DNA from: an uncultured virus (IMG/VR IMGVR_UViG_3300024999_000052)
Lineage: Duplodnaviria; Heunggongvirae; Uroviricota; Caudoviricetes
Length of the DNA: 64,000 bases
Virus record (IMG/VR): IMGVR_UViG_3300024999_000052
Strand: one strand, 5' to 3'
Shown: piece by piece, positions 13,901-31,047 of the stretch
How the letters are laid out: each line of letters opens with the position of its first letter
How positions within the stretch are numbered: position 1 is the stretch's first letter
Notes under the pieces: generated by a model
What the model saw: the letters and a program-made list of their open reading frames with translations, nothing else
Database searches by the model: none
Told to the model about the DNA's origin: nothing
Program-made: the position numbers and the translations under genes

Positions 13901-14705
13901 ACTAGATATTATCTAGTCTTTTTTTGTTTGCTTTACTTAATTACAAGCCGGATATATCCAATTTATCATTTCAAACTCTATCAGTATATAAAATACCTGC
14001 CACAAAAACACTGTTACAAGCGATTTAAAACCTAATCTATATACAATCACACTAGAGATAGATCACAAACGCTTAAAACAGTATCACAGAGTCTTAAAAT
14101 TGATTATGGCCTATTCTGACCTAAAATATAGTGTTAAGATCCGATGTAAATATAAAAATAATATTAAAATAATTAGTAATACAGCGCAATCAATAGCTAT
14201 ATATACGTAATGTCATATAAACAACTGTAAACAGGTTAAAACGAGGTTAAATGAGAGTATCTTTATTTATCAATATAGTTTAAAATAGGGATTAATCAAG
14301 GCAATGACAACACAAACAGCACTCGCCTTGAAAACTCAGTCAGTGATAAACTCAAAAATAATTTTCTTGAACTACTTGCAATCGAATCGTTTTTAGTTTA
14401 AAATTGACCTAACACCAAAAACAGTCAAACAGGAGGTTTTGCTAATCACAGACATTTAACATCAGTCCTACATACACCTAAAAGCATATCCTTAGAAGCA
14501 TCCCTCATGTATCGCCATAATAAACCATGTAAGATTTAGCCGAAAAACTCCTATCTTGACTTTGCCTCTAATAAAGGCCAGCTATACGAGTTTAGTAGAC
14601 GAATATCCTCTTCATTCAGTTTTATGGGCCTGGTAGGTGGATAGTGGGTTTCAATGATAGGATAGATCAAAGTTTAACCCTAAAATTTTTTTACACTAGT
14701 ATGCA

Positions 14706-14734
14706 TTGACGCGACAGAGTAAAAAGAGTAAGGT
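14706..14734 (+). promoter_or_regulatory. SigA-type promoter starting the structured transcript
   Basis: TTGACG-17-TAAGGT; predicted start ~14741, immediately before the first long stem arm. Confidence 0.55.
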
Positions 14735-14833
14735 TTAAGCCGCAAATTATCCCTTACAAAAAACTTGCTAAATTCTTGTCTTAATTTCTGCTCTCTTAAT
14801 CAAAAAATAAAATTAAGAAAGTGGGAAATAAAA

Positions 14834-15094
14834 ATGTCACAAACTCAAAAAGATTCTTTTCTAAAACTTGCTAAAGGTTCATGGCAGTATCAAATCCTGA
14901 AAGACCTGCTATCCAATTCAACTATAACAAATCCTTTAAAATCTCTTAAAGGAAAAGCTCGAAGCTACTCTTCAAAATATCAAACATCATTTTTCGCCTT
15001 ATTGCTCAGAATCGAAAAAGCAGGATATTCTATAACAATTAAATCTGGCCCAATGGGAGGCCAATGGGGATCTACATATACTTTGTCAGTATAA
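14834..15094 (+). CDS. Small basic hypothetical protein enclosed by an inverted repeat
   Basis: ORF; arms 14747-14796 and 15126-15172. Confidence 0.7.
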   Translation: MSQTQKDSFLKLAKGSWQYQILKDLLSNSTITNPLKSLKGKARSYSSKYQTSFFALLLRIEKAGYSITIKSGPMGGQWGSTYTLSV

Positions 15095-15235
15095 AGTTAA
15101 AAATAAATATTCTAATCTCGGAAAAAGAGAGTGGAAATTAAGACAGGAAGCGAGTATAATTGTAAGGGGTAAAGAGACAATTTAGTTTAGCTTAGAGCAT
15201 AGCAACATACTTAAAATTTAAGGAGTTGTTGAATC

Positions 15236-15403
15236 ATGGAAAACTATAACATGTTTGTAAATATTCATCCCGAAAATTACCAAATTATCACGGTTATCTT
15301 TAGTGATGACACAAAAGTTGAAAATGTGGAATTTAATCAAAAATTTTTATACAAAGATGGAAAATGTTTAGGTAGTTGCGCTATAGCAAAATATTGGATT
15401 TAG
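15236..15403 (+). CDS. Small hypothetical protein (55 aa) enclosed by an inverted repeat
   Basis: AAGGAG RBS; arms 15174-15204 and 15422-15452. Confidence 0.65.
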   Translation: MENYNMFVNIHPENYQIITVIFSDDTKVENVEFNQKFLYKDGKCLGSCAIAKYWI

Positions 15404-15517
15404 TCTTTTAACAATAACAAATGCTATGTTCTAAGCTAGGCTGAATTGTCTTAAAACCTCTCTTTCAAGCTATCTTGTTCCTGTATTTGCCCTCTTAATT
15501 AAGAGGAGGAAAATTAA

Positions 15518-15628
15518 ATGAAGCAAAGTATCCAAATCGAAAAACAAGGTTGTACATTAAACCAGTTTAGACCATGTTGGGAATGTCTCAGTTGGACAGA
15601 AGAAGGCGGTTGCCCATATAGAAAGTAA
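15518..15628 (+). CDS. Cys-rich micro-protein (36 aa) enclosed by an inverted repeat
   Basis: GAGGAGG RBS; MKQSIQIEKQGCTLNQFRPCWECLSWTEEGGCPYRK; arms 15459-15495 and 15675-15712. Confidence 0.6.
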   Translation: MKQSIQIEKQGCTLNQFRPCWECLSWTEEGGCPYRK

Positions 15629-15951
15629 AGTAAATTAACAAGTTGTCGAATATCCAATAACAAATACCCACACTAGAGGGTAAACACAAGAACAAGAGAA
15701 GCAAAAAAGAGAGAATTAACCAAAAACATTCTATAAATCCCTTCAGTTTATTCATTATTACAATTTAATCATAACAATTGCTTTAAACTTGCATAACAAA
15801 ATTAAAATGTAGGTTGCTTGCGATTTAATGATAAATTGTATAAACTTAGGCTGAAGGGATTGGATTTTCCGCAAGGTGTAAACTTATAATATATAGAAGT
15901 TTATGAGTTTAGACCTTGGGTAAAAATTTAAAGAATGAAAGAGATTATAAA

Positions 15952-16515
15952 ATGGAAAGAATTTTAACCATCGAAGAAAAGAACTTGACCCTTAGAGAAT
16001 TAATTCAAAAAGTCAATGAAGAGCTAACAGCCAATTTTGTAAAAGATGTTATTTCAAAAGGTTATAACAAATACGACACCGAAAATGGTAGAAAGGTTAT
16101 AGATATTAGTGACGTTCGCAGAATAATTGAAAGGTCAGCGAATGGGAATTACAGCTTTTATACTCAAAAGTTTGATATTGAAATGTATGAAACTAACATC
16201 CTATTCAAAACTAAGCGCAAAAAATCTGGTATGATTGGTTATAATCATACGGATCAATTAACAGTGGTTGAAATATTCACTGAAAGCACTGATTTATTAG
16301 ATATCTCACTTGAAACTATCTATAACGATGCCATTGAAGGTAAAAAGAAACGAGAACAACGCAAGGTAGAAAAGAAAGAGGAAGGAAAACAAATAATCAT
16401 CGACACGCTGAAAAATGCCAACTTATCTTTTAAACAATTTAAATCTTTAATGAACTTATACTCTAATTTAGATTGGGGTCAAAAGCAGGAAATTGAAGAT
16501 TTGATGAGCGAATAA
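15952..16515 (+). CDS. Hypothetical protein, paralog of 10880..11419
   Basis: Sequence similarity by eye. Confidence 0.75.
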   Translation: MERILTIEEKNLTLRELIQKVNEELTANFVKDVISKGYNKYDTENGRKVIDISDVRRIIERSANGNYSFYTQKFDIEMYETNILFKTKRKKSGMIGYNHTDQLTVVEIFTESTDLLDISLETIYNDAIEGKKKREQRKVEKKEEGKQIIIDTLKNANLSFKQFKSLMNLYSNLDWGQKQEIEDLMSE

Positions 16516-16527
16516 CCCTACCACATA

Positions 16528-16557
16528 AAAAAGACATTTCAACGGAGTGTCTTTTTT
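16528..16557 (+). terminator. Intrinsic terminator overlapping an alternative hairpin
   Basis: AAAAAGACATTT-CAAC-GGAGTGTCTTTTTT. Confidence 0.7.
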
Positions 16558-16658
16558 GAACTAAAGCGAACGTGTGTATGAATGGAGTAATTTCCCCTGC
16601 TGTAATTCGTCGCTTAGTTCAAAAAGGACATTTATTAAGTCCTTTAAATTAAAGGAGA

Positions 16659-16859
16659 GTGCTAAAAATGACAAACAATGATCAAAACATCCTAAATGAA
16701 ATGCACAGGAAATTTAGTGAGCTTGCCGGATTGCAGAGCGAATTATCACAAGACGCTCAACAAACTATTTTAACAATGCATGGAGAACATTACACGGTTG
16801 CCCATTGTGTAAGGTGGGGAGAAATTGCAATTTCTGAAGTTATAGACGAAAATAATTAA
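16659..16859 (+). CDS. Hypothetical protein
   Basis: ORF with AAGGAG RBS. Confidence 0.65.
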   Translation: MLKMTNNDQNILNEMHRKFSELAGLQSELSQDAQQTILTMHGEHYTVAHCVRWGEIAISEVIDENN

Positions 16860-16952
16860 TTCTTAAAGTTGATTGTAAGTGTACGCAAGCTAAACATATT
16901 ATAACAAAAGCTTGCGTATAGTTGGGAATCAATTATTAAGGAGTGGTATTAA

Positions 16953-18272
16953 ATGAAAGAAATGCTAGTAAAAACTTTTGGAATTGTGGGTTTAGTTGGT
17001 CAATTAAAATCAGGTCAAATTAACCGTGATGCTGAAATGCAACGTTCATTCGTGTGGGGTAACAAAGAGCAAACAGACCTAATTGACTCTGTATTTCAAG
17101 CTTTAACGACTTATATTCCACCTATAATTGGTGCTGAAACTGAGGTCGAAATTGAGATAAAAGGTAAATTAGAGAAAGTCATTGATCTTTTGGACGGAAA
17201 ACAGCGCAGTACCACACTTGAAAGATTCTTAAACGATGAAATAAAATTAGGCCATAACATTCGGCCTGTTGTCATTGAGAATGAAGATGAAACAGTAGAA
17301 ACATACATAGTCGCAGGTAAAAAATGGAGCGAATTACCGGACAGAGCAAAGCAAGTTTTCAAGAACTGTAAAATTCAAATGGTCTATTTCAAAGACATGA
17401 CACAACAGGAAAGAGAATTGCAGTTTATCAAACTCCAAGGAGGAAAGAAGTTAAGTAATGCCGAAGTTAACAAGGTTCGCATTGGTGATGAGGTTAGAAC
17501 ATTTATCTACAAGCAATTAGCAACAGATTTATGGACTAAATTCATTAATGTTTCAGCGAACCGAGAAGTAAAATTTGAGACTATGCAACAGGTTCTAATG
17601 GTTATGACTAATTCATTTGATCTTTCCGGCAAATCATTGCAAGAATTTTCGGAGGATTCTATCATGGTCGATGCTGAAACCATGGCACAAGTCGAAAGAG
17701 TCACAGAATATCTCAATGAAGTTGTAAAATTCATTAAAAAATTCTCTTTACCTGCAGAACTTCAAAAACTTGAAGAATCTGAAGTAATAGCAAAACTCGA
17801 ACCTAAAGAACTTAAGAAGTATCAGAAACCTATTGAATATCTCAAGAAGGTTCATGTCTCAGTTATCTATAACACGGCACTCAAGGCCATTCTGAACGAT
17901 ATCAGCGCAAAGGGTTTTGCTAAATTTGTTGCTAAATTCTTCTTTGATGTTCCTGCTAGATACAAAAGGTATACAGAGTCTGATACCTCTAGCGCATCAA
18001 GTGGAAAAATTAGAATTGAGGAAATGGATAAGGCACTGGTCAATGAGTTCAAAATTGTTGCAAAGGTTGCTGAAGTAAAAGTTGAAGAGGTTGAACAGAT
18101 TCAAGAAGTTGAGCCAGTAATTGAGCAAGAGGAACAATGGGAACAATCTTTACAAGTTGAAAACCTCGAATCTATCATAACAGATGAACCTGAAGAGTTC
18201 GGCAATAACGAAGAAGATAAGCAAGACGCTCAGTTAATCATTGACATTACAAATAATGCCAATGTTGCTTAA
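16953..18272 (+). CDS. DUF262 (ParB/Srx-fold, GmrSD N-terminal-like) protein with acidic tail
   Basis: QRSFVW, LIDSV..IPPI, LLDGKQRSTT, FIKLQGGKKLSNAE. Confidence 0.8.
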   Translation: MKEMLVKTFGIVGLVGQLKSGQINRDAEMQRSFVWGNKEQTDLIDSVFQALTTYIPPIIGAETEVEIEIKGKLEKVIDLLDGKQRSTTLERFLNDEIKLGHNIRPVVIENEDETVETYIVAGKKWSELPDRAKQVFKNCKIQMVYFKDMTQQERELQFIKLQGGKKLSNAEVNKVRIGDEVRTFIYKQLATDLWTKFINVSANREVKFETMQQVLMVMTNSFDLSGKSLQEFSEDSIMVDAETMAQVERVTEYLNEVVKFIKKFSLPAELQKLEESEVIAKLEPKELKKYQKPIEYLKKVHVSVIYNTALKAILNDISAKGFAKFVAKFFFDVPARYKRYTESDTSSASSGKIRIEEMDKALVNEFKIVAKVAEVKVEEVEQIQEVEPVIEQEEQWEQSLQVENLESIITDEPEEFGNNEEDKQDAQLIIDITNNANVA

Positions 18273-18432
18273 TAATCTTTAGTAGTTTTGAGCCTATGCG
18301 TTAAGATAATAACAAAGGCTTAACGCATTGTCGGAAAAACTTAAAAGGAAATTTATTTAAGGATGTGATGAATATTGATTGTATTTATTTAATTTAAAAT
18401 CTAAATTATAAAATGAAAGAAGGAATATTTAA

Positions 18433-19185
18433 TTGACAAAAGTTAAAACCGAAAATAGACTTGGAGAATTTTCTAAAAATAGACACGGAAGTATTATGCA
18501 AATAGTTAAATATAACAATTCGGAGAATGTGGAAATAAAATTTGATAATGGGTATATTACAAATTGTTGCTATAGAGTATTTAAAAAAGGAGAAATATCT
18601 AATCCTCTTGATAAAGTGTATTATAATGTTGGTTACTTAGGAATTGGTGAATACAAACAAAACATTAGATCATATTCTATCTGGCAAGATATGTTTAAAA
18701 GATGTTATAGTGAAAAATATTTAGTAAAGTACCCTACATATATAGGGTGTACTGTCTGCAAAGAGTGGTATAACTTCCAAGTTTTTGCTAAGTGGTATGA
18801 TGAAAACTATTACATAATACAAGGTAAAAGAATGGAACTTGATAAGGATATACTAATAAAAGGGAATAAGGTATATTCTCCTGAAACATGCGTATTTGTT
18901 CCACAAGACATAAATTATTTGTTTGTAAAATCTAATAAGTCAAGAGGAAAATATCCAATAGGCGTATATTTACATAGTGACAAGGATAAATTTGTGGCAC
19001 AGTGTCATGATATTAATAAGAAAATGGTGTATTTAGGTAGGAGTAATACTCCAAACGAAGCTTTCAAGGTGTATAAGGATTATAAAGAAAAACTTATAAA
19101 GGATATTGCTGATATGTATCGAGAACTAATACCGGAAAAATTATATAAAGCTATGTATTCATATATAGTAGAAATTACAGATTGA
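18433..19185 (+). CDS. Phage HNH-type homing endonuclease-like protein
   Basis: WQDMFKRCY..YPTYIGCTVCKEW..ELDKDIL..YSPETCVFVP; C-terminal AP2-like PIGV..YLG. Confidence 0.75.
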   Translation: MTKVKTENRLGEFSKNRHGSIMQIVKYNNSENVEIKFDNGYITNCCYRVFKKGEISNPLDKVYYNVGYLGIGEYKQNIRSYSIWQDMFKRCYSEKYLVKYPTYIGCTVCKEWYNFQVFAKWYDENYYIIQGKRMELDKDILIKGNKVYSPETCVFVPQDINYLFVKSNKSRGKYPIGVYLHSDKDKFVAQCHDINKKMVYLGRSNTPNEAFKVYKDYKEKLIKDIADMYRELIPEKLYKAMYSYIVEITD

Positions 19186-19295
19186 CTTAATAATTCTTAA
19201 ATAATTGTATCTGTAATCTAGACAATAACAATTGTTAACTTGTTATTGTCTAGTATTCGAGGTAAAGTTATTAAAACTAAAGGAGTGAAGTTAAA

Positions 19296-19529
19296 ATGAA
19301 AAGATATGCAAAGGAAATTGAGGGTTATATATTTGTTGGCAATACACCAAGCGAAGGAGACTTACCAGAACTGAAGAATGTTAAATATCAAATTGGTGAA
19401 CTTGCTCTAGATATTCATGGAAAAGTAATTGACAAAAACCATATGCTTCCATTATTTGTGGCAAAAGAAAGTTATGATGAATACAACAGAATCATGATGG
19501 CACAGTTGAGCGCAATCAGGAATAGTTAA
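19296..19529 (+). CDS. Hypothetical protein
   Basis: ORF with RBS. Confidence 0.65.
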   Translation: MKRYAKEIEGYIFVGNTPSEGDLPELKNVKYQIGELALDIHGKVIDKNHMLPLFVAKESYDEYNRIMMAQLSAIRNS

Positions 19530-19749
19530 ATCATATTTTCAAAATACTATGAGAAACCCATGCAAAATTGTAAAATAATTATTTAGGGAATTAGCCTTAA
19601 TTCCCTTCTAAGTTCATACTAAAAGTGATATAATATATATCATAAGATTATGAGTTTAAAAGGCAATTGTGGATAATACTTATAACAATTGGCCTAGAAT
19701 AAATCAAAGGAGTAAAGTTTCGAAATTAAGAAAGGAAAGGAGTCTTAAA

Positions 19750-19968
19750 ATGAATGAAAAAGTTATGGCAATGAGCGACGAAGACTTAAAAACTGCATTT
19801 GAAGAATTTAGTGCTCACGAAAGAACACAAGTCCTTCAGGATGGAATCATTAAAAATCTAGCAGAAGAAGCGAGTAAAGAGGATGAATTTACAAATTATG
19901 GAATGTTAATTATGAATGTAGAATATGTGCTTCTAAAAGAAATGGCAAGAAGATTTTACATGTCTTAA
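19750..19968 (+). CDS. Hypothetical protein (family with 38998 and 62663)
   Basis: MSDEDLK..LLKEMARRFY resembles the ExAKR-ending paralogs. Confidence 0.65.
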   Translation: MNEKVMAMSDEDLKTAFEEFSAHERTQVLQDGIIKNLAEEASKEDEFTNYGMLIMNVEYVLLKEMARRFYMS

Positions 19969-20083
19969 AGTCCCTTTGATGGTGCTTTTACTTCAATTGA
20001 AAAATTACAATCTTTTCAAATTGAAAATCCAATTAGTTCATATGAGTCGTGGGAAATCGAAGAATTTAAAATTATAGGATAAA

Positions 20084-20150
20084 GGTCGATACTAGCACCA
20101 AATTCAACAACAGTGCTAGTATACACGTTAAGCGTGTACTGATGATGACC
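20084..20150 (+). ncRNA. Hammerhead ribozyme, type II, variant core (GAUA instead of GAAA; extra U after CUGAUGA)
   Basis: GGUC-GAUA-CUAGCAC..GUGCUAG-UA-UACACG/CGUGUA-CUGAUGA-U-GACC; predicted cut after A20121. Confidence 0.75.
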
Positions 20151-20176
20151 AAAAAATTAAGAAAGAAGGAATACAT

Positions 20177-20566
20177 ATGAAAAAGGAATTATTAGCAATC
20201 AGAGTGGAGACCACTAACAAATTGACACTGAGAGTTATTGACTCACTTCTTGACCGTGAAGAAAACGAAATCGAGGGATATATTGAAGACTTAATGCAAC
20301 ATGGTTGCCAATCTGGTATGGTTTCAGAGCTTATTTATTACCATGACACTGTAAAGTTCTATGAGGAATTTAAAACTGAAATTAAAGCAATGTTCAAAGA
20401 ATCTCTAGAAGAAACTGGTTTTAAATCTCCTAAAGAATTGTTTGGAGATAAATGGGATGACGAGGACTTTTTTGCAGAAGAGGATTTAAACAAAAATTTA
20501 CTAGCGTGGTTCGCTTATGAAGAGACAGTAAAAAACATTGCTTATCAATTGGAAATGGATGTTTAG
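20177..20566 (+). CDS. Acidic phage protein (HGCxSG..LIYY family; possible DNA mimic)
   Basis: HGCQSGMVSELIYYHDTVKFY; D/E rich. Confidence 0.7.
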   Translation: MKKELLAIRVETTNKLTLRVIDSLLDREENEIEGYIEDLMQHGCQSGMVSELIYYHDTVKFYEEFKTEIKAMFKESLEETGFKSPKELFGDKWDDEDFFAEEDLNKNLLAWFAYEETVKNIAYQLEMDV

Positions 20567-20567
20567 A

Positions 20568-20639
20568 GCCATACTGAGGAGCCTTAAATTAGGCGAAACT
20601 AGCATAAATTCTATAACAGAGTTAATGCTAGTCTATGGC
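20568..20639 (+). ncRNA. Hammerhead ribozyme, type I
   Basis: GCCAUA-CUGAGGA-GCCU/AGGC-GAAA-CUAGCAU..AUGCUAG-UC-UAUGGC; all three stems pair; cut after C20633. Confidence 0.93.
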
Positions 20640-20669
20640 AAATAAGGCCAATTAAATTAATGAAAGAGG

Positions 20670-21257
20670 TTGTTTGAAATGACAAAAACTGTAAATGTAA
20701 ATTCATCCAAGAATCAAGATATTAAAGGTAAATTTGTTTCTCGCGAAGTCCTTTCCTGTGTTACTGGAATGGTGGAATACATAATTAAACAAGGGTTCGA
20801 GGACAGAGAAGCACCATTTAGTCTTGATGATTGCTCCAATTACTACACGGATAATTCAGGTAAAATTGAGGAGTTAACAGAAAAGAAAGAGCAATTAGAG
20901 GAAGAAATTCAAGACATTGAAAATAGTATTGAAGAACTAGAAGACGAAGATGGAAACAAAGATGAAGAAATACAAACAAAAGAGAATGAAAAAAATAAAC
21001 TTGAAGAAAAAATTTCTTCAATTGAAAACAAAATTGAAGAATTGGAAGAGGAACAGGGCGAAGTCAATGAACCTTATGAGTGGTGGATTGTTTCAAGTTG
21101 GTTATGTGACAAACTAAAAGAAAAAGGTGAAGTTGTTTTGGAAGATGAAAATATATGGGGCAGACAAACTTCAGGCCAAGCGATTCTCTTGGATAGCGTA
21201 ATTTCTGAAATATGCTCAGATATGGGAATCTTAGAAGGTCAAGAACACGAATGGTAA
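20670..21257 (+). CDS. Acidic phage protein with coiled-coil insert
   Basis: EPYEWWIVSSWL..WGRQTSGQAILLD; E-rich heptads. Confidence 0.7.
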   Translation: MFEMTKTVNVNSSKNQDIKGKFVSREVLSCVTGMVEYIIKQGFEDREAPFSLDDCSNYYTDNSGKIEELTEKKEQLEEEIQDIENSIEELEDEDGNKDEEIQTKENEKNKLEEKISSIENKIEELEEEQGEVNEPYEWWIVSSWLCDKLKEKGEVVLEDENIWGRQTSGQAILLDSVISEICSDMGILEGQEHEW

Positions 21258-21260
21258 AAA

Positions 21261-21327
21261 GTCACACTGACGAGTTCTAAATGAACGAAACTAACCTGAA
21301 ATACTATATAACAGGTTAGTATGTGGC
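21261..21327 (+). ncRNA. Hammerhead ribozyme, type I
   Basis: GUCACA-CUGACGA-GUUC/GAAC-GAAA-CUAACCUG..CAGGUUAG-UA-UGUGGC; cut after A21321. Confidence 0.92.
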
Positions 21328-21362
21328 ATTGAAGCTTTAAAATGAAGGAGTGTATATTTATT

Positions 21363-21758
21363 ATGACCAATACAATTAATTCTAATGAATTTCATGTTGC
21401 TTTTACTTTATCTAAAACAAAGGTTTTCAACGTAAGTTACTATACATTAGGAAGTAATAAATCACCATATTTTAGCACTTCAGCAGAAGTATTCAATAGA
21501 CCAAAAACTGATTGGAGTCAATGCGGTCAATGTCAAGGGGAAGTTTTAAAAGGATACAGGATTGCAATGAGTTTTTATAGAAAATGGGACGAATTACACT
21601 TAAAAGAATTGTCCGAAGATCAATACCAAGAATTACTTGAAAACCTTGAAGAACTATTTTTAAAATATCCTTATTTACTAGAAGAAGATAAGGGAATTGG
21701 ATTAAGAGATATTTCTTTTAGTAGAGTAAAAGATTTTTCAATGACAGTGTATAGATAA
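21363..21758 (+). CDS. Hypothetical protein
   Basis: AAGGAG RBS before ATG 21363. Confidence 0.7.
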   Translation: MTNTINSNEFHVAFTLSKTKVFNVSYYTLGSNKSPYFSTSAEVFNRPKTDWSQCGQCQGEVLKGYRIAMSFYRKWDELHLKELSEDQYQELLENLEELFLKYPYLLEEDKGIGLRDISFSRVKDFSMTVYR

Positions 21759-21891
21759 TTACCTCAGAAGCAATAAATAATTATTTTGATAATGCCTAAA
21801 CTCCTGCAAACTGTATAACAGCCATAACAATAGATTGCAGGGGTTTGGAGTTTATCAAGAAATTATGATAGACTGAAGGAGGAAGCACACA

Positions 21892-22083
21892 ATGGATATT
21901 TTAAAAGATGGTACTAAGGTTAAAGTTTATGATCTTTTAGGTGAATTTGTTGAAGGAATTATTCAAGGTAATGATGAATCAGAGTGCGAAGGTAATCTAA
22001 AAGATTTGAATTATTATGTTGTAGTCGATGGAAATTTTGACAATGAAATTATGATACATTGGACGGAAATTGAATTGATTTAA
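21892..22083 (+). CDS. Small acidic hypothetical protein
   Basis: GGAGG RBS. Confidence 0.65.
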   Translation: MDILKDGTKVKVYDLLGEFVEGIIQGNDESECEGNLKDLNYYVVVDGNFDNEIMIHWTEIELI

Positions 22084-22161
22084 ATTTTCCCAGAAAACTT
22101 ACAATTTATGGTATTAAATGGCATAATTAGTATAACAGCAAGCCAAATTTAGTTCATGGGT

Positions 22162-22190
22162 TTTACATACGCACGCACGTATGTTATACT
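22162..22190 (+). promoter_or_regulatory. Promoter with operator-like spacer
   Basis: TTTACA-TACGCACGCACGTATGT-TATACT. Confidence 0.6.
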
Positions 22191-22233
22191 TACATTATCT
22201 TACTACATCACTACATCAAAGGAGGTTACAAAA

Positions 22234-22377
22234 ATGCAAGTATCTCTAAACACTCGAATTGAATTAGAATTACGTCAACGCTTAGACATCTATGTTAAAA
22301 AAACTAATAAATCAATAGCTCAAATTACTGCTGAAGCAATTGAAAAATATTTAGATGAAAAGGAGAAAAAAGAGTAA
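22234..22377 (+). CDS. Ribbon-helix-helix (CopG/Arc-like) regulator
   Basis: VSLNTRIELELRQRLD..KSIAQITAEAIEKYL pattern; AAGGAGG RBS. Confidence 0.75.
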   Translation: MQVSLNTRIELELRQRLDIYVKKTNKSIAQITAEAIEKYLDEKEKKE

Positions 22378-22384
22378 ATTTTTA

Positions 22385-22413
22385 TTGACGTATGCGTGCA
22401 AGCGTGATATGAT
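22385..22413 (+). promoter_or_regulatory. Promoter with related operator-like spacer
   Basis: TTGACG-TATGCGTGCAAGCGTGA-TATGAT. Confidence 0.6.
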
Positions 22414-22466
22414 GTTATTAATCAAGTAAATATTATTTATTAATTTATGAAAGAAGTGATTTAAAA

Positions 22467-22733
22467 ATGTTTAGCAATGAAGAGGAAGAAGTCATGGGAA
22501 CCAGAATCCAAAAAGTCAAAAGCACTATCGATAAAATATTAAAAGATTGTGTAAATGAACTACCAGAAGTCCAATTTGGTTGGAGTGGATCTACTATTGA
22601 GGTTTATTTGTCTGGCGGTAATTATCAAACCAGAAATGTCATTGAGAACCATTTTGTACACAGCAAGAAATATAGAGGAGTTGAGGTGTCAAATAACGAT
22701 ACCCAAAAACATATAAGTTTTACTCTTACGTAA
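22467..22733 (+). CDS. Hypothetical protein
   Basis: ORF downstream of promoter. Confidence 0.6.
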   Translation: MFSNEEEEVMGTRIQKVKSTIDKILKDCVNELPEVQFGWSGSTIEVYLSGGNYQTRNVIENHFVHSKKYRGVEVSNNDTQKHISFTLT

Positions 22734-22762
22734 AAACTTAGAATAAAAAGGAGTGTTTCAAA

Positions 22763-22972
22763 ATGGAATATGACAAAGAAGATTTTAAGGAAATGATTAA
22801 AGACTGGAAGGCAGACAATTCTCCAGAAATGGATGATCTAGAAGTTATTGAAATAGAATTTCTTGAAGATACTCAAGAATGGGTTGCTGTCGCGGAAGAT
22901 GATAAAAGTTCATATTCATTAACCGATGATGGATTGGGAAATATTGTTATCAATTATTCAGGTACTCGTTAA
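22763..22972 (+). CDS. Very acidic small protein
   Basis: D/E-rich 69 aa, AAGGAG RBS. Confidence 0.7.
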   Translation: MEYDKEDFKEMIKDWKADNSPEMDDLEVIEIEFLEDTQEWVAVAEDDKSSYSLTDDGLGNIVINYSGTR

Positions 22973-23031
22973 CAGAGGACTACAGCTTAAAAACTGTAGT
23001 AATGTGCAAGGCATTGTTCCAAGTTATGCCT
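22972..23031 (+). ncRNA. Twister ribozyme, circularly permuted (type-P5-like)
   Basis: ACA-GA-GGA, P1 CUACAG/CUGUAG, UAA-UGU-GC, P4 AGGCAU/AUGCCU with loop UGUUCCAAGUU; UCC/GGA pseudoknot; predicted cut U23000/A23001. Confidence 0.72.
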
Positions 23032-23080
23032 AAACTAAACCTGTTAGCTCTAAGGGAGCAAGGTCAAAGGAGTTTTAAAA

Positions 23081-23323
23081 ATGAGAACATTAACAAAAAC
23101 TGAATGGAAAAGTATTAAAATTGGTAAACTTGATAACCCCTTATCTATTGAAGAGTTCAAAGGACTTTATGGAATTTCTGACGAAGAGTATTATAAGGCA
23201 GAAAGGCAAGGATCTTGTTTAAATGAATATGGAAATTTAGAGATTACTTTTAACGATGATGAAAACGATATGCTTACAGTAGAAATTTATCGCGAACAAA
23301 TTACCCATATTTATACTAATTAA
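23081..23323 (+). CDS. Acidic hypothetical protein
   Basis: AAGGAG RBS. Confidence 0.65.
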   Translation: MRTLTKTEWKSIKIGKLDNPLSIEEFKGLYGISDEEYYKAERQGSCLNEYGNLEITFNDDENDMLTVEIYREQITHIYTN

Positions 23324-23425
23324 TTTAATTGACAATAGTATTGGCTGAAGGTTGCACACCAATAATTCTATAACAATTTGGCGTGTGACATTGAACCAAA
23401 ATATTGTTGAAAGAGGGAATATGTC

Positions 23426-23914
23426 ATGTTAACAATCAAAAAACTTCAAGATGCCAAAAAGGAATTATTAAAACGTGGTGGAGCAATTTATGTTGTGTAC
23501 TCTGCTGAAAAGGTTGAAGTTTGGGTTAATTCTGGAGGTTACAGTGCGGTGTCAATGGGAACTAATGTAATTCAAATTCTTGACGAAGGACAAATTAAAT
23601 ATGATAATGTGTTCTATCAAAGTAAAAATCAAGAGATGAGTTTGCAGGAATTTTGTGATATGGTAAATAATGAATATTTTCAAGATGAAATTAAAATGGA
23701 AGATGCTACGCTTATTAAGTCTTATAATATTGGTGGAAAAACTACAGAACTACGTTTCACTCCAAAAGCCAATACTCAAACATGGCCCGGATATGACGAT
23801 TCATTATCTTTGCGTTACACTGGTTATTGGTATGGGACTTATGATCATCATGAACATATCGGAAAGACTAAGAAGGAAGCACTGGAATATCTTGCAGGAA
23901 ACTATGGGATTTAG
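23426..23914 (+). CDS. Hypothetical protein
   Basis: ORF with RBS. Confidence 0.65.
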   Translation: MLTIKKLQDAKKELLKRGGAIYVVYSAEKVEVWVNSGGYSAVSMGTNVIQILDEGQIKYDNVFYQSKNQEMSLQEFCDMVNNEYFQDEIKMEDATLIKSYNIGGKTTELRFTPKANTQTWPGYDDSLSLRYTGYWYGTYDHHEHIGKTKKEALEYLAGNYGI

Positions 23915-24000
23915 TTTATTGAATTGAATTTGAATTCAATGCACCATGAATCTACAATCTCTATAACAATCATGGGGTATCGGTTCGAGGTAAAATTAAT

Positions 24001-24264
24001 TTGAAAGTGGGAATTAAAATGTCTAATGATAAAACTCCTAAAAAATGGAATGATGAAAATTACCTTGTAAAATTATATGATGTAACATGGGAAGTTCCTA
24101 GAATTGAAGTTTATTTAAATGACAATTGCATTACTATTATCCACAATCCTAGTGAGTTAGTAGAAAACCAAAACGGAGATTCAAGATTCTATTATATCTT
24201 ACCTGAGATTGTGGAACGAGTAGTTAGTAAATTTTTAGACGAGTTAAAACCTAGTAAACAATAA
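24001..24264 (+). CDS. Hypothetical protein
   Basis: ORF track; probable start ATG 24019. Confidence 0.6.
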   Translation: MKVGIKMSNDKTPKKWNDENYLVKLYDVTWEVPRIEVYLNDNCITIIHNPSELVENQNGDSRFYYILPEIVERVVSKFLDELKPSKQ

Positions 24265-24289
24265 TTTTAATTGAAAAGGAGTTTTAAAA

Positions 24290-24574
24290 ATGCATCAAAT
24301 GGAGCAAGTAAAATTAGCTAACAAATTAATGGAAGGGGAGAAAGAATTCAATAAGTCATTACCTTGCAAAGAAATAACTATGACCGCAGAGCAAGCCAAA
24401 ATTTATATCAGTAAATATGTCATTCCTCAATGCAACAAAGGAAATGAAGCAATTCTAAGAGAGTTAATATTTTCATTGTCTAATGTTGATTGGAGCAAAG
24501 CAGGGAACATTATTATCCATGAACATCCTGAATTGATTCAGGAACGAATTGACAGGGATTTAATAAGCAAATAG
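24290..24574 (+). CDS. Hypothetical protein
   Basis: AAGGAG RBS. Confidence 0.65.
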   Translation: MHQMEQVKLANKLMEGEKEFNKSLPCKEITMTAEQAKIYISKYVIPQCNKGNEAILRELIFSLSNVDWSKAGNIIIHEHPELIQERIDRDLISK

Positions 24575-24669
24575 GGCAATCAAAGCCCTTTTAAAACCTC
24601 CAAACTAGCAATAACAGCATAACATCATAATTGCAGAGCTTGGAGAGTTTAAAAGACTTTGATTAAATT

Positions 24670-25137
24670 TTGAAGCAAATGAAAGGTGGAATACATATTA
24701 TGAGCAAAACTGTAAGTCAAGTTAAAGAATGGTTCACAACATTAGAGGTTAATGCAGAAATTAAATTCAACGGAAAAACACTTTCTATCAATGGAACTAA
24801 TTTTAGAATACCTAGAACTGAAAATCTTGATACTAGAATTAATTTTGATGCAAAGGTCGATTCTTTCATACGGAGTCTATTCCCTGAAAGTATGGAAATT
24901 GAGTTGACTGAGAAATATGCTCAACTTTCCAACGAGTTAAAATTGCAACAAATTAGCATTGACTTTTCACGAATTAATTACAGTTCATACTGCTCTAGAA
25001 ATATCAAGCGTAGCATAGAAGATGCTAAAAAATTACTAGAATTTGTTTCTACTTATCCTGAATTTTATTCAATCATCGAAAAATATTCTGCTTATAGGAG
25101 TCTGATTGAAATGGGATGGGATGATATTATTGAATAA
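24670..25137 (+). CDS. Hypothetical protein
   Basis: ORF track; probable start ATG 24700. Confidence 0.65.
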   Translation: MKQMKGGIHIMSKTVSQVKEWFTTLEVNAEIKFNGKTLSINGTNFRIPRTENLDTRINFDAKVDSFIRSLFPESMEIELTEKYAQLSNELKLQQISIDFSRINYSSYCSRNIKRSIEDAKKLLEFVSTYPEFYSIIEKYSAYRSLIEMGWDDIIE

Positions 25138-25370
25138 AATATTAAGGTGAGTTCTTAGAATCTTAAAATAAAATAAAAGGAGGTAATAATAATGGCAGGA
25201 GTTAACTTAAAACTACTCAAAGAATTCAGAACTTTTTGTGAAGCATATCCTCAAGTGCCATTTACAATGGATGCGTTCGATAAATTTATTGCTCATATTT
25301 CTAAGTAATCTTACATACACTAAAGCAAACCAATACCATAAAATAAAATTAATGAAAGAAGGTTAATCAA

Positions 25371-25661
25371 ATGCAAAGACCTAAAAATATCAAAAACTTA
25401 ACCCATTCTGCTTCCATGCTTAACTCCCTATACTTAGGCAAAGAAATTGTTTACACTGGCACAGGACATTCCCTAAGACCTTACAGGGGAGAAATTATTA
25501 ATATTGCATATTATTCAGACTTAGATCCTATTCCATATGCAGAAATTAAATTAAAATTATGGAATAACCGGACAGTAACTAAAATTCTCCCATTGTCAGA
25601 AATTATTCTAGTATCTTCTTTGAAGAAAACTAAAACTAAAAAATCTAAGGTTGCAGCATAA
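25371..25661 (+). CDS. Hypothetical basic protein
   Basis: ORF with RBS. Confidence 0.6.
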   Translation: MQRPKNIKNLTHSASMLNSLYLGKEIVYTGTGHSLRPYRGEIINIAYYSDLDPIPYAEIKLKLWNNRTVTKILPLSEIILVSSLKKTKTKKSKVAA

Positions 25662-25814
25662 TTTGTATTACTTATGGATACATGGTATAATACTTAAAAT
25701 GCAAATATAATTATTGCAAATTGTATTATACCATGTAAAAATTAAGGGATACAAATTGGTAAGTAAATATCTCATTTTCTCTATAACAATGAAGGTTAGG
25801 AGGTTAGAGCCATA

Positions 25815-26075
25815 ATGTCAAACATAAATATACTAAAATCTAATCATGATATTATTCTTAGGGAAGCAAGTCAAAAAGGATTTAATTATACTGGAGATAA
25901 TTTATTCACATTTATTCAATGGAAATCAAAAGGTTATATGATTACAAGAGGTCAGAAGGCTTTCATTATGCTTTATCTCTGGAATCAAGGCGAGAACAGA
26001 AGGAAGGTACTAACTGGACTCTTTACATCAGATCAAGTACAGAAAAGTCGATGTAATCAATTAGTTGTGGTATAA
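25815..26075 (+). CDS. Hypothetical protein (ArdC N-terminal-like TFxQWxxxGxxxxKG motif)
   Basis: LFTFIQWKSKGYMITRGQKA..LF..DQV. Confidence 0.55.
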   Translation: MSNINILKSNHDIILREASQKGFNYTGDNLFTFIQWKSKGYMITRGQKAFIMLYLWNQGENRRKVLTGLFTSDQVQKSRCNQLVVV

Positions 26076-26142
26076 TCTGTATAACACGGACGTTACAGAG
26101 ATTCTGGATCATTTTGTAAATTAATTAATTGGAGGTTTTAAA

Positions 26143-26340
26143 ATGAATGAAGAAATTGACATCCAAATTAGTTTTACTCCTCATCCTTGGGATAATCAAA
26201 AAGAGCCTTATTTCTGGATTATTCTAAAAGGTAATGATTCTAAACATAATGCAGGATGTGGATGGGCAGAAAGTCCTCAGAAAGCATGGAAGAAAGCTAA
26301 CGAATATTATGAGAAGCATGTTAAAAATGTAATGTCATAG
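26143..26340 (+). CDS. Hypothetical protein
   Basis: GGAGG RBS. Confidence 0.65.
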   Translation: MNEEIDIQISFTPHPWDNQKEPYFWIILKGNDSKHNAGCGWAESPQKAWKKANEYYEKHVKNVMS

Positions 26341-26416
26341 AACTATTATTTCATGCAGAATACCATAACCGCAAACCCTTATAATAGTAGGGTTTCAGGG
26401 GTTGACGATTTAGAAA

Positions 26417-26761
26417 ATGAAAGAAGGTAATTTAATGTTAAAAACAAAAATTTCCATAACAAAATGGATTAGAGAAAATTTTATTAATGGAGAACTCCTT
26501 GCTGAGTTTATAGAATTTACGAATTTGCATGAGTTTATTTTAGAAGGAAGAACATTAAAACCAGAATATATGGAAAAATACGAGACTTGGAGAGAAAAGT
26601 ATTTATCAGTTTTTAACAGCATTAAAGACTACCCTGAAATAGAAATAGTCGAACGGTTTGGAAATGAAACTCATAAGACAATGAGAACACCTTTGAATTA
26701 TATGTGGTATATGTATGCAAATGATGCTAAAAAGAGAAATAAACTGTTTAAAACAGCTTAA
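26417..26761 (+). CDS. Hypothetical protein
   Basis: ORF track. Confidence 0.6.
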   Translation: MKEGNLMLKTKISITKWIRENFINGELLAEFIEFTNLHEFILEGRTLKPEYMEKYETWREKYLSVFNSIKDYPEIEIVERFGNETHKTMRTPLNYMWYMYANDAKKRNKLFKTA

Positions 26762-26892
26762 AAAGCAAGGGTTAATAGAGTGAAAATAATTTATTTGTTT
26801 TTATTCTTAGAGTACATTATAATAATTAGTGTATTCTATAGAGTGAAAACTCTAAAATTATAAAAAGAGGAGGGTAGAAAGAAACTTAAATA

Positions 26893-27822
26893 GTGATAAA
26901 TAAAAAGGAGAGATTAAATAATTTGGCAAGTCTAAAACAATTAGAAGCGATAGAAAGATTAAAAAAGGCTAAACTAGAACGTGAACATAAATTAGTTGAT
27001 GGAATAGATTATAAATTCTGTAGTATACATCACACCCATTTCCCAGGTGAAGACATATGGTTTCCTGCTACAACAGAATATTTTTATTACCATAGTAAAA
27101 ATAAGTCAGACTATTTATACCCTTATTGTAAAAGATGTGCAAGTAAAAAAGGAGTACAACAATGGAGAGACGATCCGATTAAACATAGGGAAGCACATAG
27201 AAGATATGAAAAAACTAAAAAATTTAAAATATGGATGCGAAAAAACCAAATGGAATCTGTTGATTATATGGTTCAATATAGAAAAGATAACCCTGAAAAA
27301 ATGAGAGGATATACAAAAAATCATAGAATTCATGATATTACTGAGGCAGAATGGAGAAGATGTTTAAAGATATTTGATTATAGGTGTGCATACTGTGGAA
27401 TAACTCAAGAGGAAAGTTTAAGAATACATAAACAAAAATTGCATAAAGATCATGTAGATTATGAAGGTTATAATGACTTAAGAAATGCTGTGCCAGCATG
27501 TAGGAGTTGTAATAGTAAAAAACATCAATATAATATGGAAACATGGTTCAAGGAAGAAGAATATTTTAATGAAGAAAGTTTGTCTTTTATTTATTGGTGG
27601 ATAATTGAAGGATATAAGGATTATATAGAAGATAAACCTCCTTACAGAATAATTAAAGAAAAGAACAAAGATAATGATAAATTCCATTGGAATTTATGGA
27701 CAGTAAATGAATATAGAAATACCATTGAAATAGTTATTACAAAGAATAAAAAGAAAGAAATAACAATAGAAATAGAGAGAGGGATTTTAAATGAAATATT
27801 AACACTTGAAGTAGCAAAATAA
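26893..27822 (+). CDS. HNH endonuclease (paralog of 59041..59940)
   Basis: CAYCG..HKDHVD..DLRNAVPACRSCNSKK. Confidence 0.85.
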   Translation: MINKKERLNNLASLKQLEAIERLKKAKLEREHKLVDGIDYKFCSIHHTHFPGEDIWFPATTEYFYYHSKNKSDYLYPYCKRCASKKGVQQWRDDPIKHREAHRRYEKTKKFKIWMRKNQMESVDYMVQYRKDNPEKMRGYTKNHRIHDITEAEWRRCLKIFDYRCAYCGITQEESLRIHKQKLHKDHVDYEGYNDLRNAVPACRSCNSKKHQYNMETWFKEEEYFNEESLSFIYWWIIEGYKDYIEDKPPYRIIKEKNKDNDKFHWNLWTVNEYRNTIEIVITKNKKKEITIEIERGILNEILTLEVAK

Positions 27823-27941
27823 TATTAGTTATAAACCTAGACTATTTGTAAAGACTATGATAGTCTAGGTTTATCTTTAAGTTAGCAGGGTTTATAACAA
27901 TCATGCTAGGTGGTATAACAAATAACAGGAGGATGATAAAA

Positions 27942-28400
27942 ATGTCTAAAATAACTTATAAGGACAAATTAACTATAACTCTTGATAAAAATGATATGGT
28001 TCAATCAATTGAATGCACTCTTCCTATTTTGGGAGAAGGTATGGACAGAATAGTATACGAGTTATCAAATGAAAGAGTATTAAAAGTTGCTAAGTCAATC
28101 AGAGCGTCTTGTATTAATTGGGATGAAATTACAATTTTCGAAAATATAAAAGGAAAGGAATGTATTGTTCATTTCCCAATTGTTTATGAGTATGAAGAAA
28201 GTTATGGGTTCTGGTATGTATGCGAAAGGATTACTATGTCTTCTCAAGCTATGACGGAGGTTTTAAAGTTCGTTCCTTGTTTAGACTGCTCAGATAATGC
28301 AGGTTATAACAAAGAGGGTAAATTAACTATTGTAGATGCAGACAGATTAAATTGGACTTGGTTTGTTAGAAGTGAAAATCCATATGCTAAGAATGAATAA
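27942..28400 (+). CDS. Protein-kinase-like fold protein
   Basis: LGEGMDRIVY..VLKVAK..N..E..NAG..IVD. Confidence 0.55.
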   Translation: MSKITYKDKLTITLDKNDMVQSIECTLPILGEGMDRIVYELSNERVLKVAKSIRASCINWDEITIFENIKGKECIVHFPIVYEYEESYGFWYVCERITMSSQAMTEVLKFVPCLDCSDNAGYNKEGKLTIVDADRLNWTWFVRSENPYAKNE

Positions 28401-29448
28401 GTCCTATCAAAAGTAAAGTTTATTGTATTTAAGAAAGGGGTGAACAATATGAATTTAGAATTAACTCAGAAAGAAAATGAAGTTCTTTATAACTTTTTAG
28501 GTAGTCTTAATTATTATGAGATTATGGCTATATTGTGCAAGTCTTATCCTGAGAAAGAATTAGAAGAGGTAAGTGCTATCTTGACTAAGATTACAAGAAA
28601 AGTAGAAATCTAATCTATTTAAAGAAAGGAATGATTTATTATGGCATCTAGACAAATAGCAGAAATCAAAGCATATGAATATGACACTAAAGAAGAAATG
28701 GAAAGAGAAATTTATGCCTTACGTGATTCTAAAGAATGGAAAGTGCAAAATACTTATGAATTGAATGAAAAATGGAGAGCAGAATATTTTAAGATTAATC
28801 TGTGATGTAATTTAAGTTCATATTCGCCATAACAGAGAGTATATAACAGCAAGGGGTATGGCGTTGTGGGCTTATATTATAGCATCGGTTGCTAAAATAA
28901 ATATTAGGAGGAAATTATTATGAAAATACCAAAAGACAATCAATTCACTTATAAAATAAGTGACGGAATGATTAAAGGATATTTTAACATTTATCAAGGT
29001 AGAGGTGGTAAGATATGTTTAAGTATGGGTGAAGCAGTAACTCCTTTATCCAAGGAACAAATTCAAGAATTACACATAGATTGCTATTCTCTTATTGATT
29101 TTGATCATGAATTATATATGAAAGCTTATTTGTAACTTAAAATGTTATTTTTATGTGGGGATAGAAAGGAGAATAAAAATGAAAATCAAACATTCTTGTT
29201 GGTGTTGCCTCCTGCTTAATGCGGATAAAGTTGAATCTAAATTCTGTGTCAAAGGTCACAAACTTAAATTTATCTTCAATATTAATGAATGCTCAGACTG
29301 GGATGGTTAACCACAAAATATCAATAACAGAACTGCCATAACAAATCGACCATTATTTTGGCAGTGAATTATAGAATTTTTATTTATTTTAGCATTGTAT
29401 TGACTTACTTTGTATTTTATTGTATACTGATAATACGGTAGAAAGGAG

Positions 29449-29727
29449 GTGAAAATAAAAATGACAGTAATTGACCAAAGCAACTTATTCAATCTGATTT
29501 CTCAATATAATAAAATTGATTCTACCACTATAAAGAGAAATATAATTAGATTGATTGATGATTCTCAGTACCATAAAAACATACCCGTATTAGCCAGAAG
29601 ACTTGACGTAAATGTAAATACCGTATACGGATGGAGACAACCACAGCGAAAATTAAATGTTGGATTTGAAGCAGCATTAAAATTATCTCATGCTTTAGGA
29701 GTTAGTATAACAGAATTAATGAAATAA
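29449..29727 (+). CDS. XRE-type HTH regulator (paralog of 34320)
   Basis: LARRLDVNVNTVYGW..ALKLSHALGVSITELM. Confidence 0.8.
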   Translation: MKIKMTVIDQSNLFNLISQYNKIDSTTIKRNIIRLIDDSQYHKNIPVLARRLDVNVNTVYGWRQPQRKLNVGFEAALKLSHALGVSITELMK

Positions 29728-29760
29728 AAAATCAAATTAGAAAGAAGGATAAAATACATA

Positions 29761-30666
29761 ATGAGAAGAAAAGTAACATCCTCAAGAGCAGAACATAAAA
29801 ATGCAATAGTGAAAATGGTAAAGGAAAAGAGAATGATTTTAATTGCAGATTTAGCTAGAGTAATGAATAATAAAAATATCAAGAGTGCTGTAGAAACTTT
29901 AGTGAAAGATGGTAAAATTAAAAGACAAAAGATAAAAGTGAGAGGGCAGGTTGGCAATATGACTAATCAATGGTTAGTTTACGAAAATACAGTTACGCAA
30001 AATGAAATTTTAGATTTTGAAAGAGAAACTATAAATCGAACTTTCCAATCCCCATTAGTGGAAAATCATTGTTACAAAAGTCCTGAAGCACCAATTGAAC
30101 AAACATTAAAAATTAATAATTTAACTGAGAGTGCAAGCAAAATGATAGAATACTTTCATAAATCGGATTCTAAAATTTTAGAAAACGACCAAACACCTTT
30201 AACCATCATAACCAACGAAGTTATACCAATATACAGCAACAACAATAAAAGAATGGTTAATGCTAGAGAATTACATGATTTCTTACAAGTAAAATCAAAA
30301 TTTGCAGATTGGGTAAAAAATAAAATTAGGAAATATGACTTTAAGGAAAATGAAGAATTTATAACGGTTTCTAATATTTTAGAAAACGGTGGTAAAAGTA
30401 TAGAATACTACTTCAATGTAAATATGGCTAAGGAATTAGCAATGGTGGAAAATAATGAACGTGGAAAATATATACGAAAATACTTTATCGAAACTGAAGA
30501 GGCATATGCCAATCAAAATTCTCTTCAGCAAATAAATAACATACAATCTCTTGATGACATATATAACTTTATGAAAGTGTTTGCCACTGGTGTTACAAAT
30601 TTAAATGATAGGGTTAAATCACTGGAGGGTACAATTGAGTCTATGAAGAAAGCAATCATGGCATAA
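29761..30666 (+). CDS. AntA/AntB-domain antirepressor
   Basis: VNARELHDFLQVKSKFADW..MAKELAMVENNERGKYIRKYFIE. Confidence 0.85.
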   Translation: MRRKVTSSRAEHKNAIVKMVKEKRMILIADLARVMNNKNIKSAVETLVKDGKIKRQKIKVRGQVGNMTNQWLVYENTVTQNEILDFERETINRTFQSPLVENHCYKSPEAPIEQTLKINNLTESASKMIEYFHKSDSKILENDQTPLTIITNEVIPIYSNNNKRMVNARELHDFLQVKSKFADWVKNKIRKYDFKENEEFITVSNILENGGKSIEYYFNVNMAKELAMVENNERGKYIRKYFIETEEAYANQNSLQQINNIQSLDDIYNFMKVFATGVTNLNDRVKSLEGTIESMKKAIMA

Positions 30667-30798
30667 GGTAAAATTAAATATAGAATAGGACTCTACATCC
30701 TGAATATATTTTTCAATATTATGTAAATGGTATTGCAATACAAGTAAATATGTGGTATTCTAAATTAAGAAATAAAAATATTAAGGAGTGATACATAA

Positions 30799-31047
30799 AT
30801 GTTTAAATTAGAATTCACCAACACGGTTCATAACTCAATAAGAGTATGGATGTATTTTGATCCAAAAGATTGGCAAGAAGTTCAAGCGTCAAAAGAGTAT
30901 CAATTATTTCAACTTCTATCAATATGGGGAGGCATCGACAAGAGACAAGATGATTTATATTCTTGGGAGTTGCCAATATCTTTAATGAAATATATTAGAG
31001 AAAAGTTTGCTTATTATTCTAATTGTGAGATAATTTTGGTAGGTTAA
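30799..31047 (+). CDS. Hypothetical protein
   Basis: Promoter 30733-30761 and RBS. Confidence 0.65.
   Translation: MFKLEFTNTVHNSIRVWMYFDPKDWQEVQASKEYQLFQLLSIWGGIDKRQDDLYSWELPISLMKYIREKFAYYSNCEIILVG

Follow-up and report, generated by a model that had tools for sequence, protein, structure and literature searches.

The stretch of DNA analysed here (hereafter the window) comprises 64,000 nt of an uncultured virus (IMG/VR IMGVR_UViG_3300024999_000052) and contains, on the plus strand between positions 14834 and 30666, an array of small genes whose spacers carry the hexamer AUAACA, mostly in hairpin loops. Within this array an acidic ORF of 69 aa, assigned to no family (22763–22972), runs directly into a candidate twister ribozyme (22972–23031), which is followed by a conserved hairpin (23039–23064), a ribosome-binding site, AAAGGAG (23066–23072), and an ORF of 80 aa, also without family (23081–23323), that starts 80 nt past the predicted cut and lies behind the same twister in a further locus (L018); all of these features are on the plus strand. 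The phage gene families of the window include HNH and homing endonucleases, anti-repressors and a helicase, and the small-gene array is syntenic with two viral records of ~180 kb (G002 and G003). One array gene, of 439 aa, has 23–29% identity to phages of Brevibacillus, Alicyclobacillus and Enterocloster, matches from which the element would seem to be a phage of a low-GC Gram-positive host; no DNA similar to the window was found in cultured phages or plasmids. When the gene that opens the array was examined as a possible RNA-binding protein, it gave no Pfam family and its Atlas scores stayed under 0.8.

Upstream of the acidic ORF, a sigma-70-like promoter (22385–22413, plus strand; 10/12 consensus positions, with TG), conserved in G002, could drive the twister transcript, although such a match is weak by itself, since 28 sites of this kind were found against 21.8 expected. 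Two promoter-like sites (22160–22415) surround a 47-aa gene with a ribbon-helix-helix-like product (22234–22377; Pfam E 0.004, below the cut-off) and contain an inverted ACGCACG repeat, likely an operator pair; this arrangement is also conserved in G002. Elsewhere, a stand-alone ORF resembling the N-terminal part of ArdC (25815–26075; a weak match, Pfam E 0.002) and an array protein with a GmrSD N-terminal domain (16953–18272) are conserved in both G002 and G003, and are possibly counter-defence genes.

Judged by its sequence, the element at 22972–23031 is a type-P5 twister fold, an assignment for which model R1 and Rfam-passing relatives (see below) also speak. The P5 permutation is present from end to end, that is, a P2 strand, GA, a T1 strand, the P1 hairpin, UAA, the second P2 strand, T2 and the P4 hairpin. 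P2 pairs ACA (22972–22974), whose first A is also the last base of the stop codon of the acidic ORF, with UGU (23003–23005), and the P2 strand is followed by G22975 and A22976. Pseudoknot T1 joins GGA (22977–22979) to UCC (23018–23020) by three Watson-Crick pairs, P1 is formed by CUACAG (22980–22985) and CUGUAG (22994–22999), and the UAA stands at 23000–23002. Pseudoknot T2 joins GC (23006–23007) to GU (23023–23024), i.e. one C-G and one G·U pair, while P4 has six good pairs between AGGCAU (23009–23014) and AUGCCU (23026–23031). Each element named in the initial annotation was thus found where it had been placed. Its description of the P4 loop stood as to the pairing with GGA and had to be changed as to the register, the Rfam P5 alignment giving an 8-nt loop, UUCCAAGU (23017–23024), with G23016·U23025 as its single closing pair and a bulged U beneath. 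The catalytic positions (G22975, A23001 and A23002) are intact, and so are the pseudoknot bases. From the position of the UAA in the Rfam P5 consensus, cleavage is predicted between U23000 and A23001, with A23001 as the predicted general acid and G22975, the first G past the P2 strand, matching the Rfam consensus, as the predicted general base; this G is invariant in 31/31 aligned copies of the subfamily described below, its identity having been fixed by the search pattern. Cut position and acid-base chemistry are taken from work on the twister class (PMC11662667).

The search with the Rfam twister-P5 model (RF02684) that had been proposed as a check gave no support: no twister was returned at the gathering score (37.6 bits, a curation cut-off), nor at E ≤ 10, on the whole window or on 401 bases. 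We built a covariance model, R1, from 40 Rfam-passing twisters and without any member of the window subfamily. R1 gave a single match in the window (22971–23028; 31.2 bits; E 3.6e-6, a rough value) and recovered 32/35 subfamily copies. Among 19 close relatives tested with Rfam, four scored above the cut-off and five more reached 32–36 bits. Taken with the R1 match, the four passing copies make the window twister an AU-rich outlier of RF02684. It shares with that family the order of the elements, the GA-GGR and the UAA cut site, both pseudoknots and, like the Rfam model, the lack of a closing P5 stem; a conserved P5 stem, considered at one point, was dropped, the upstream sequence being freely variable. 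It differs in being AU-rich and in having a bulged P4 closed by G·U, which would explain why it falls below Rfam's reach, and it has two features outside the model, namely a 3′ tail that is conserved and a spacer motif that overlaps P2. As the window copy shows, Rfam misses AU-rich P5 twisters. A descriptor composed with the candidate in view found only 22972–23031 in the window and no site in 30 order-2 Markov sequences of 64 kb. The folding energy of the region is modest (z -2.3 for 22970–23033; z -1.6 for 22960–23045). A weak match to COG3860 at 23005–23046 scored 11 bits, where 42.5 are required, and was taken to be a chance hit.

A search of metagenomes with a core-base pattern, in which neither P1 nor P4 was required, retrieved 55 loci, of which 36 have the P1 stem and form one subfamily; this was drawn from few related samples, and its counts are those of one lineage. 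With looser patterns, 91 distinct matches were obtained from viral and genome contigs, and P1 has at least 4 pairs in 34 of these. The T1 strands had been left free in that scan, and in these 34 matches GGA was combined with UUCC in 6 and GGG with UCCC in 27, while one was mismatched. Matches lacking P1 were discarded as chance in each of four scans (19/55, 57/91, 2/4 and 4/6). Rfam itself recognised 54 Twister-P5 matches in 20 of the loose-scan loci, many with a 3-bp P2, and twisters of this kind reach 63 bits in the Rfam P5 model. An alignment of 40 of these 54 had 95% of its cells paired and double changes in all five helices, and its helix score was matched by none of 500 shuffles. Pseudoknots T1 and T2 covary in the wider twister family and are invariant within the subfamily; since the subfamily core never varies, it offers no covariation of its own. 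P1 and P4, on the other hand, change with double substitutions while the catalytic bases and the pairs stay. A ribosome-binding site and start codon follow 28/31 loose-scan twisters at 39–81 nt past the cut, a count made without a chance control.

The stretch common to the subfamily continues for about 50 nt past P4, as far as the ribosome-binding site. It includes the conserved tail hairpin, made of ACCU/AGGU and GCUC/GAGC with a GUUA bulge, whose helices are 100% and 99% paired in 31 copies with one-sided changes only, and the AGGAG of the ribosome-binding site is invariant in 31/31 aligned copies. Two other readings of the tail, as an integron attC site (from its UAAC...GUUA ends) and as another ribozyme class, were dropped after comparison by eye with consensus features; Rfam scans were blank. 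This cassette of ribozyme, tail and ribosome-binding site stands behind 16 gene families (33 loci with an upstream ORF) and before 8; it is thus a repeat that gene shuffling has distributed among related elements. Its usual partner gene follows in 23/24 loci, these having been chosen by the twister, and the upstream genes vary more. The junction between acidic ORF and twister is not conserved among relatives: the acidic ORF is followed by a subfamily twister in six loci and by no ribozyme in L005, G002 has the usual partner gene without a ribozyme, and in related contigs the acidic ORF is immediately followed by the next spacer (joint 22972–23342).

We favour, with a probability of roughly 0.6, the reading that the twister fronts a portable leader and cuts itself at U23000/A23001, uncoupling the downstream gene. 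The anatomy, the family membership and the shuffling of the flanking genes are its basis; from these we infer the cutting of this copy in the cell and the uncoupling role. The AU-rich twister would form the front of a leader that also includes the tail hairpin and the ribosome-binding site. The transcript would fold into two hairpins tied by two pseudoknots and cut itself, G22975 serving as the base and A23001 as the acid. The upstream piece would then end in a 2′,3′-cyclic phosphate just past the P1 hairpin and retain the UAACA, while the downstream piece would begin with a 5′-hydroxyl and P4 and carry an 80-nt leader with two hairpins and the ribosome-binding site. The likely job of such a cut would be to make the downstream gene independent, in translation and RNA decay, of its variable upstream neighbour, and uncoupling of this sort would suit an array whose genes are reshuffled between relatives; on the other side, genes occur both with and without a ribozyme among related loci. 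A ribozyme cut before a gene, leaving a 5′-hydroxyl, is known from glmS of Bacillus subtilis (PMC11780869), which differs in having an unrelated fold and in depending on a ligand, none being indicated for the window twister. RNase J1 degrades the 5′-hydroxyl product in the glmS case (PMC11780869), and the cut proposed here could either stabilise or destabilise the downstream message.

The window copy might also be a worn member of its family, slow or non-cutting, that is carried along with its gene. The AAGU end of its P4 loop, pointed out at the outset as a departure from the usual AAGC, is ordinary: AAGU was found in 10/26 distinct GGG-type twisters, the base having been left free in the scan, and in the 40 Rfam-passing twisters the T2 pair at that position is G-C in 21, A-U in 7, G·U in 6, C-G in 3 and another combination in 3. 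Among about 1900 natural twisters assayed, flaws in P2 were tolerated, as were pseudoknot G·U pairs, with which cleavage was largely unchanged (PMC11662667). The top of P4 is a different matter. Its closing pair is G-C in 25 of 31 subfamily copies, A-U in 5 and G·U only in the window copy, and at 23025, where the window has U, most sequences in each of the four related contig sets have C. No other subfamily member has so weak a P4 top, and the window copy may therefore cut slowly; flaws at the loop-closing position of P4 lower cleavage, to 0.58 compared with 0.76 (PMC11662667). Its R1 score is among the lowest of the subfamily (range 29–49 bits), Rfam misses it, and a neighbouring type-II hammerhead has decayed. 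Against wear stand the catalytic and pseudoknot bases, all intact, and the finding that about 94% of the natural twisters tested cut, most stem flaws being tolerated (PMC11662667). We thus regard a worn-out copy as unlikely and expect that the window copy quite probably cuts. A further reading is that the cassette matters mainly as DNA, that is, as a common stretch of ~110 bp for phage recombination and gene swapping, with the cutting incidental. The same cassette does lie between many gene pairs, contig depth in the cassette bin is ~6–8 times that of the preceding bin in two runs and 2.7 times in a third, many contigs depart from the window sequence at spacers, and ribozyme-free spacers are common to relatives in the same manner. 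A homology arm, however, would have no need to keep catalytic bases and pairs amid the double substitutions of P1 and P4, and comparable places in four records are taken by several ribozyme lineages unrelated to one another. We therefore find a DNA role in place of the ribozyme role distinctly improbable, the two roles being mutually compatible.

The tail raises another possibility, namely that the leader contains a switchable twister. Its CUGUUAG (23041–23047) is able to pair with UUAACAG (22969–22975), an interaction that would make the P2 strand and catalytic G inaccessible; a ribosome at the stop codon or a protein bound to UAACA would then decide whether and when the RNA is cut. This rival helix has 6–9 bp in 29/31 subfamily copies, compared with at least 6 bp in 1/54 other twisters, and is predicted to be more stable by 1.7–3.3 kcal/mol than the active fold without its pseudoknots. 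In a transcript ending at 23050 it dominates (mean probability 0.94; up to 1.0), falling to 0.14 once the remaining tail is present. The survival of the tail hairpin pairs through one-sided changes would fit a switch, as would the upstream stop codon, which lies within 10 nt of the ribozyme start in 23/33 subfamily loci with an upstream ORF. Yet the rival helix shows no covariation or double change among the subfamily copies and scores no better than shuffles, and, all copies coming from one ancestor, a single chance complement would give the same count. Furthermore, the folding program ignores pseudoknots, which stabilise the active fold, and a -10-like box directly upstream in 12/36 loci means that there may be no upstream ribosome. 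Given a rival helix devoid of covariation and a folding that leaves out the pseudoknots, we treat the switch as conjecture, with odds well below even.

The UUAACAG at 22969–22975, which overlaps the stop codon, the P2 strand and the catalytic G, is by subfamily comparison a variant of the spacer hexamer. On the plus strand, ATAACA occurs 27 times in the spacers of 14700–30800 against 4.5 expected, a 6-fold enrichment, compared with 5 on the opposite strand and 3 in the spacers of 31000–64000. It is the top spacer hexamer there, ahead of the ribosome-binding site, with the consensus H-AUAACA-R, and is similarly frequent in the spacers of relatives (G001, 22 against 7.1 expected; G002, 31 against 3.8; G003, 33 against 5.7). 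A count over 169 dereplicated sites (of 278) found the motif enclosed in a loop at 54%, compared with 29% for 200 control hexamers; the motif is often in tandem. For 18 ribozymes the search had made no use of the motif; 17 of them carry it within 45 nt on the 5′ side of the cut and none on the 3′ side. It is also on the 5′ side in both G003 ribozymes, making 19/20 other hammerheads and twisters of the phage group, the sole miss being the decayed type-II hammerhead of the window. By eye, the motif-bearing ribozymes make up about eight lineages. This placement has to be read with the caveats that these folds leave most freedom in the loops 5′ of the cut, the 3′ side being constrained, and that one of the 17 motifs is just outside its stem. 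In the twister subfamily, UAACA occurs within 45 nt 5′ of the cut in 31/32 distinct copies and the full AUAACA in 8/32, the ACA being forced by the pattern. Neither AUAACA enrichment nor a ribozyme was found in the corresponding parts of Brevibacillus phage Sundance and Alicyclobacillus phage KKP_3916. A two-part promoter was rejected as an explanation of the motif, the 169 sites having no second element at a fixed distance (at most 0.31 bits beyond the immediate flanks); AUAACA may also be a one-box promoter, and a promoter box in loops would look similar. No published description of the motif was found in open-access text. Its presence just 5′ of the cut in the twister and in neighbouring ribozymes alike is new, and hints at shared control.

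Such control could take the form of a common RNA tag of the array, AUAACA being read by a phage or host RNA-binding protein coupled to cleavage, and the subfamily would then be a protein-gated twister; we offer this only tentatively, the odds being against it. The tag would be displayed in the hairpin loop of most spacers, and since it sits just 5′ of the cuts, cleavage would leave it on the 3′-terminal hairpin of the upstream piece or on a short released 5′ piece. In the window twister the tag would overlap P2 and the tail would complement it, as expected of a natural twister gated by a protein. Several long hairpins carry the same motif. A long hairpin with an internal loop at 23341–23398, which matches no Rfam family, has AUAACA in its top loop and is the most widely common spacer among related contigs (highest depth bin). 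Two further long hairpins (21794–21851, z -4.2, and 24588–24655, z -4.7) have tandem AUAACA in the loop and could be RNase III sites in the ribozymes' role.

The presence of another ribozyme class nearby, as the initial annotation had it, was confirmed, two well-formed type-I hammerheads lying 1.6 and 2.3 kb upstream of the twister on the plus strand. The nearer (21261–21327; z -4.6; 27 bits with RAGATH-1-hammerhead against a cut-off of 56.3) is predicted to cut after 21321 and has AUAACA atop stem III; the other (20568–20639; z -5.1; 26.1 bits in Rfam), predicted to cut after 20633, has it in the stem-III loop. A type-II hammerhead-like element (20084–20151, plus strand) is probably decayed, with GAUA for GAAA, an extra U after CUGAUGA and the motif worn to ACAACA; a relative with a canonical core stands ahead of the same gene family in another locus (L056). 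In this phage-like region, then, several ribozymes (a pair of type-I hammerheads, a decayed type II and the twister) are interspersed with small genes of one orientation. The stretch between the hammerheads and the twister contains the long hairpin near 21794–21851 as well as promoter-like sites at 22162 and 22385; given these two sites, the hammerheads and the twister may belong to separate transcripts.

From the two classes it had been argued that cleavage between these genes is selected and is not the spread of one repeat. For the junction itself this alternative is drawn too sharply, as the cassette is a repeat (16 families behind which and 8 before which it stands) and the junction is unconserved; as a regional argument it stands. 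All four phage-like records examined carry 2–4 ribozymes of differing types in the gene array (two twisters each in G001 and G002, a hammerhead and a twister in G003, at positions that differ from those of the window), which makes selection for ribozymes across the whole array plausible. Two ribozyme classes at one gene family were seen in 0/13 families directly upstream and 0/14 downstream, a small sample with loci chosen by the window twister and hammerheads scanned by a simple descriptor, and 5/13 and 9/14 of these families, respectively, also occur without a ribozyme. An apparent swap of a hairpin for a hammerhead before the 439-aa gene was dismissed, the G003 hammerhead preceding another gene.

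Arguing for selection from mixed classes is not new, being already in print (PMC10085705, PMC6765202), and the co-clustering of hammerheads and twisters near phage genes has likewise been published (PMC10085705, PMC6765202, PMC8782182, PMC5737381). Roth 2014 and Weinberg 2015, as cited in PMC10085705 and PMC6765202, also found two classes adjacent and read this as meaning that the class is unimportant, whereas here no class swap is seen at the same gene and each lineage moves with its own leader. The prophage hammerhead clusters of Perreault et al. 2011 (PMC3088659) resemble the present array in that ribozymes lie between small variable phage genes; those clustered hammerheads cut native polycistronic RNA in vitro, and their proposed role was to cut long transcripts into short messages. 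The window array differs from them in mixing twisters with hammerheads and in having AUAACA 5′ of the cuts, a motif of which the part of that paper available to us makes no mention. The twister class and the phage setting are thus known, and the common motif and the complementary tail are new. What self-cleaving ribozymes do near the genes of bacteria and phages has been described as an open question (PMC6765202). If a protein binds AUAACA and alters the cut or the fate of the pieces, this would explain why unrelated classes occur in the same arrays; binding of this kind would make the window element a natural gated twister, for which the motif offers a testable handle.

Other ribozymes were noted in the course of these searches. 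Two more twister-P5 lineages occur in related phages (L159 16249–16311; L162 12323–12388 and 12888–12959); their T1 and T2 pairs differ, the P1 loop contains AUAACA, and Rfam scores them at 47–59 bits. In L162 (G002), a weak pistol match (18809–18875; 24.4 bits against 34.5) lies beside a stretch in common with 27904–27944 of the window. Arrays of a single ribozyme class were found in the GC-rich records L067, L075, L077, L078, L081, L086 and L123, each of which has 4 to 8 twister-P5 matches within 6–12 kb.
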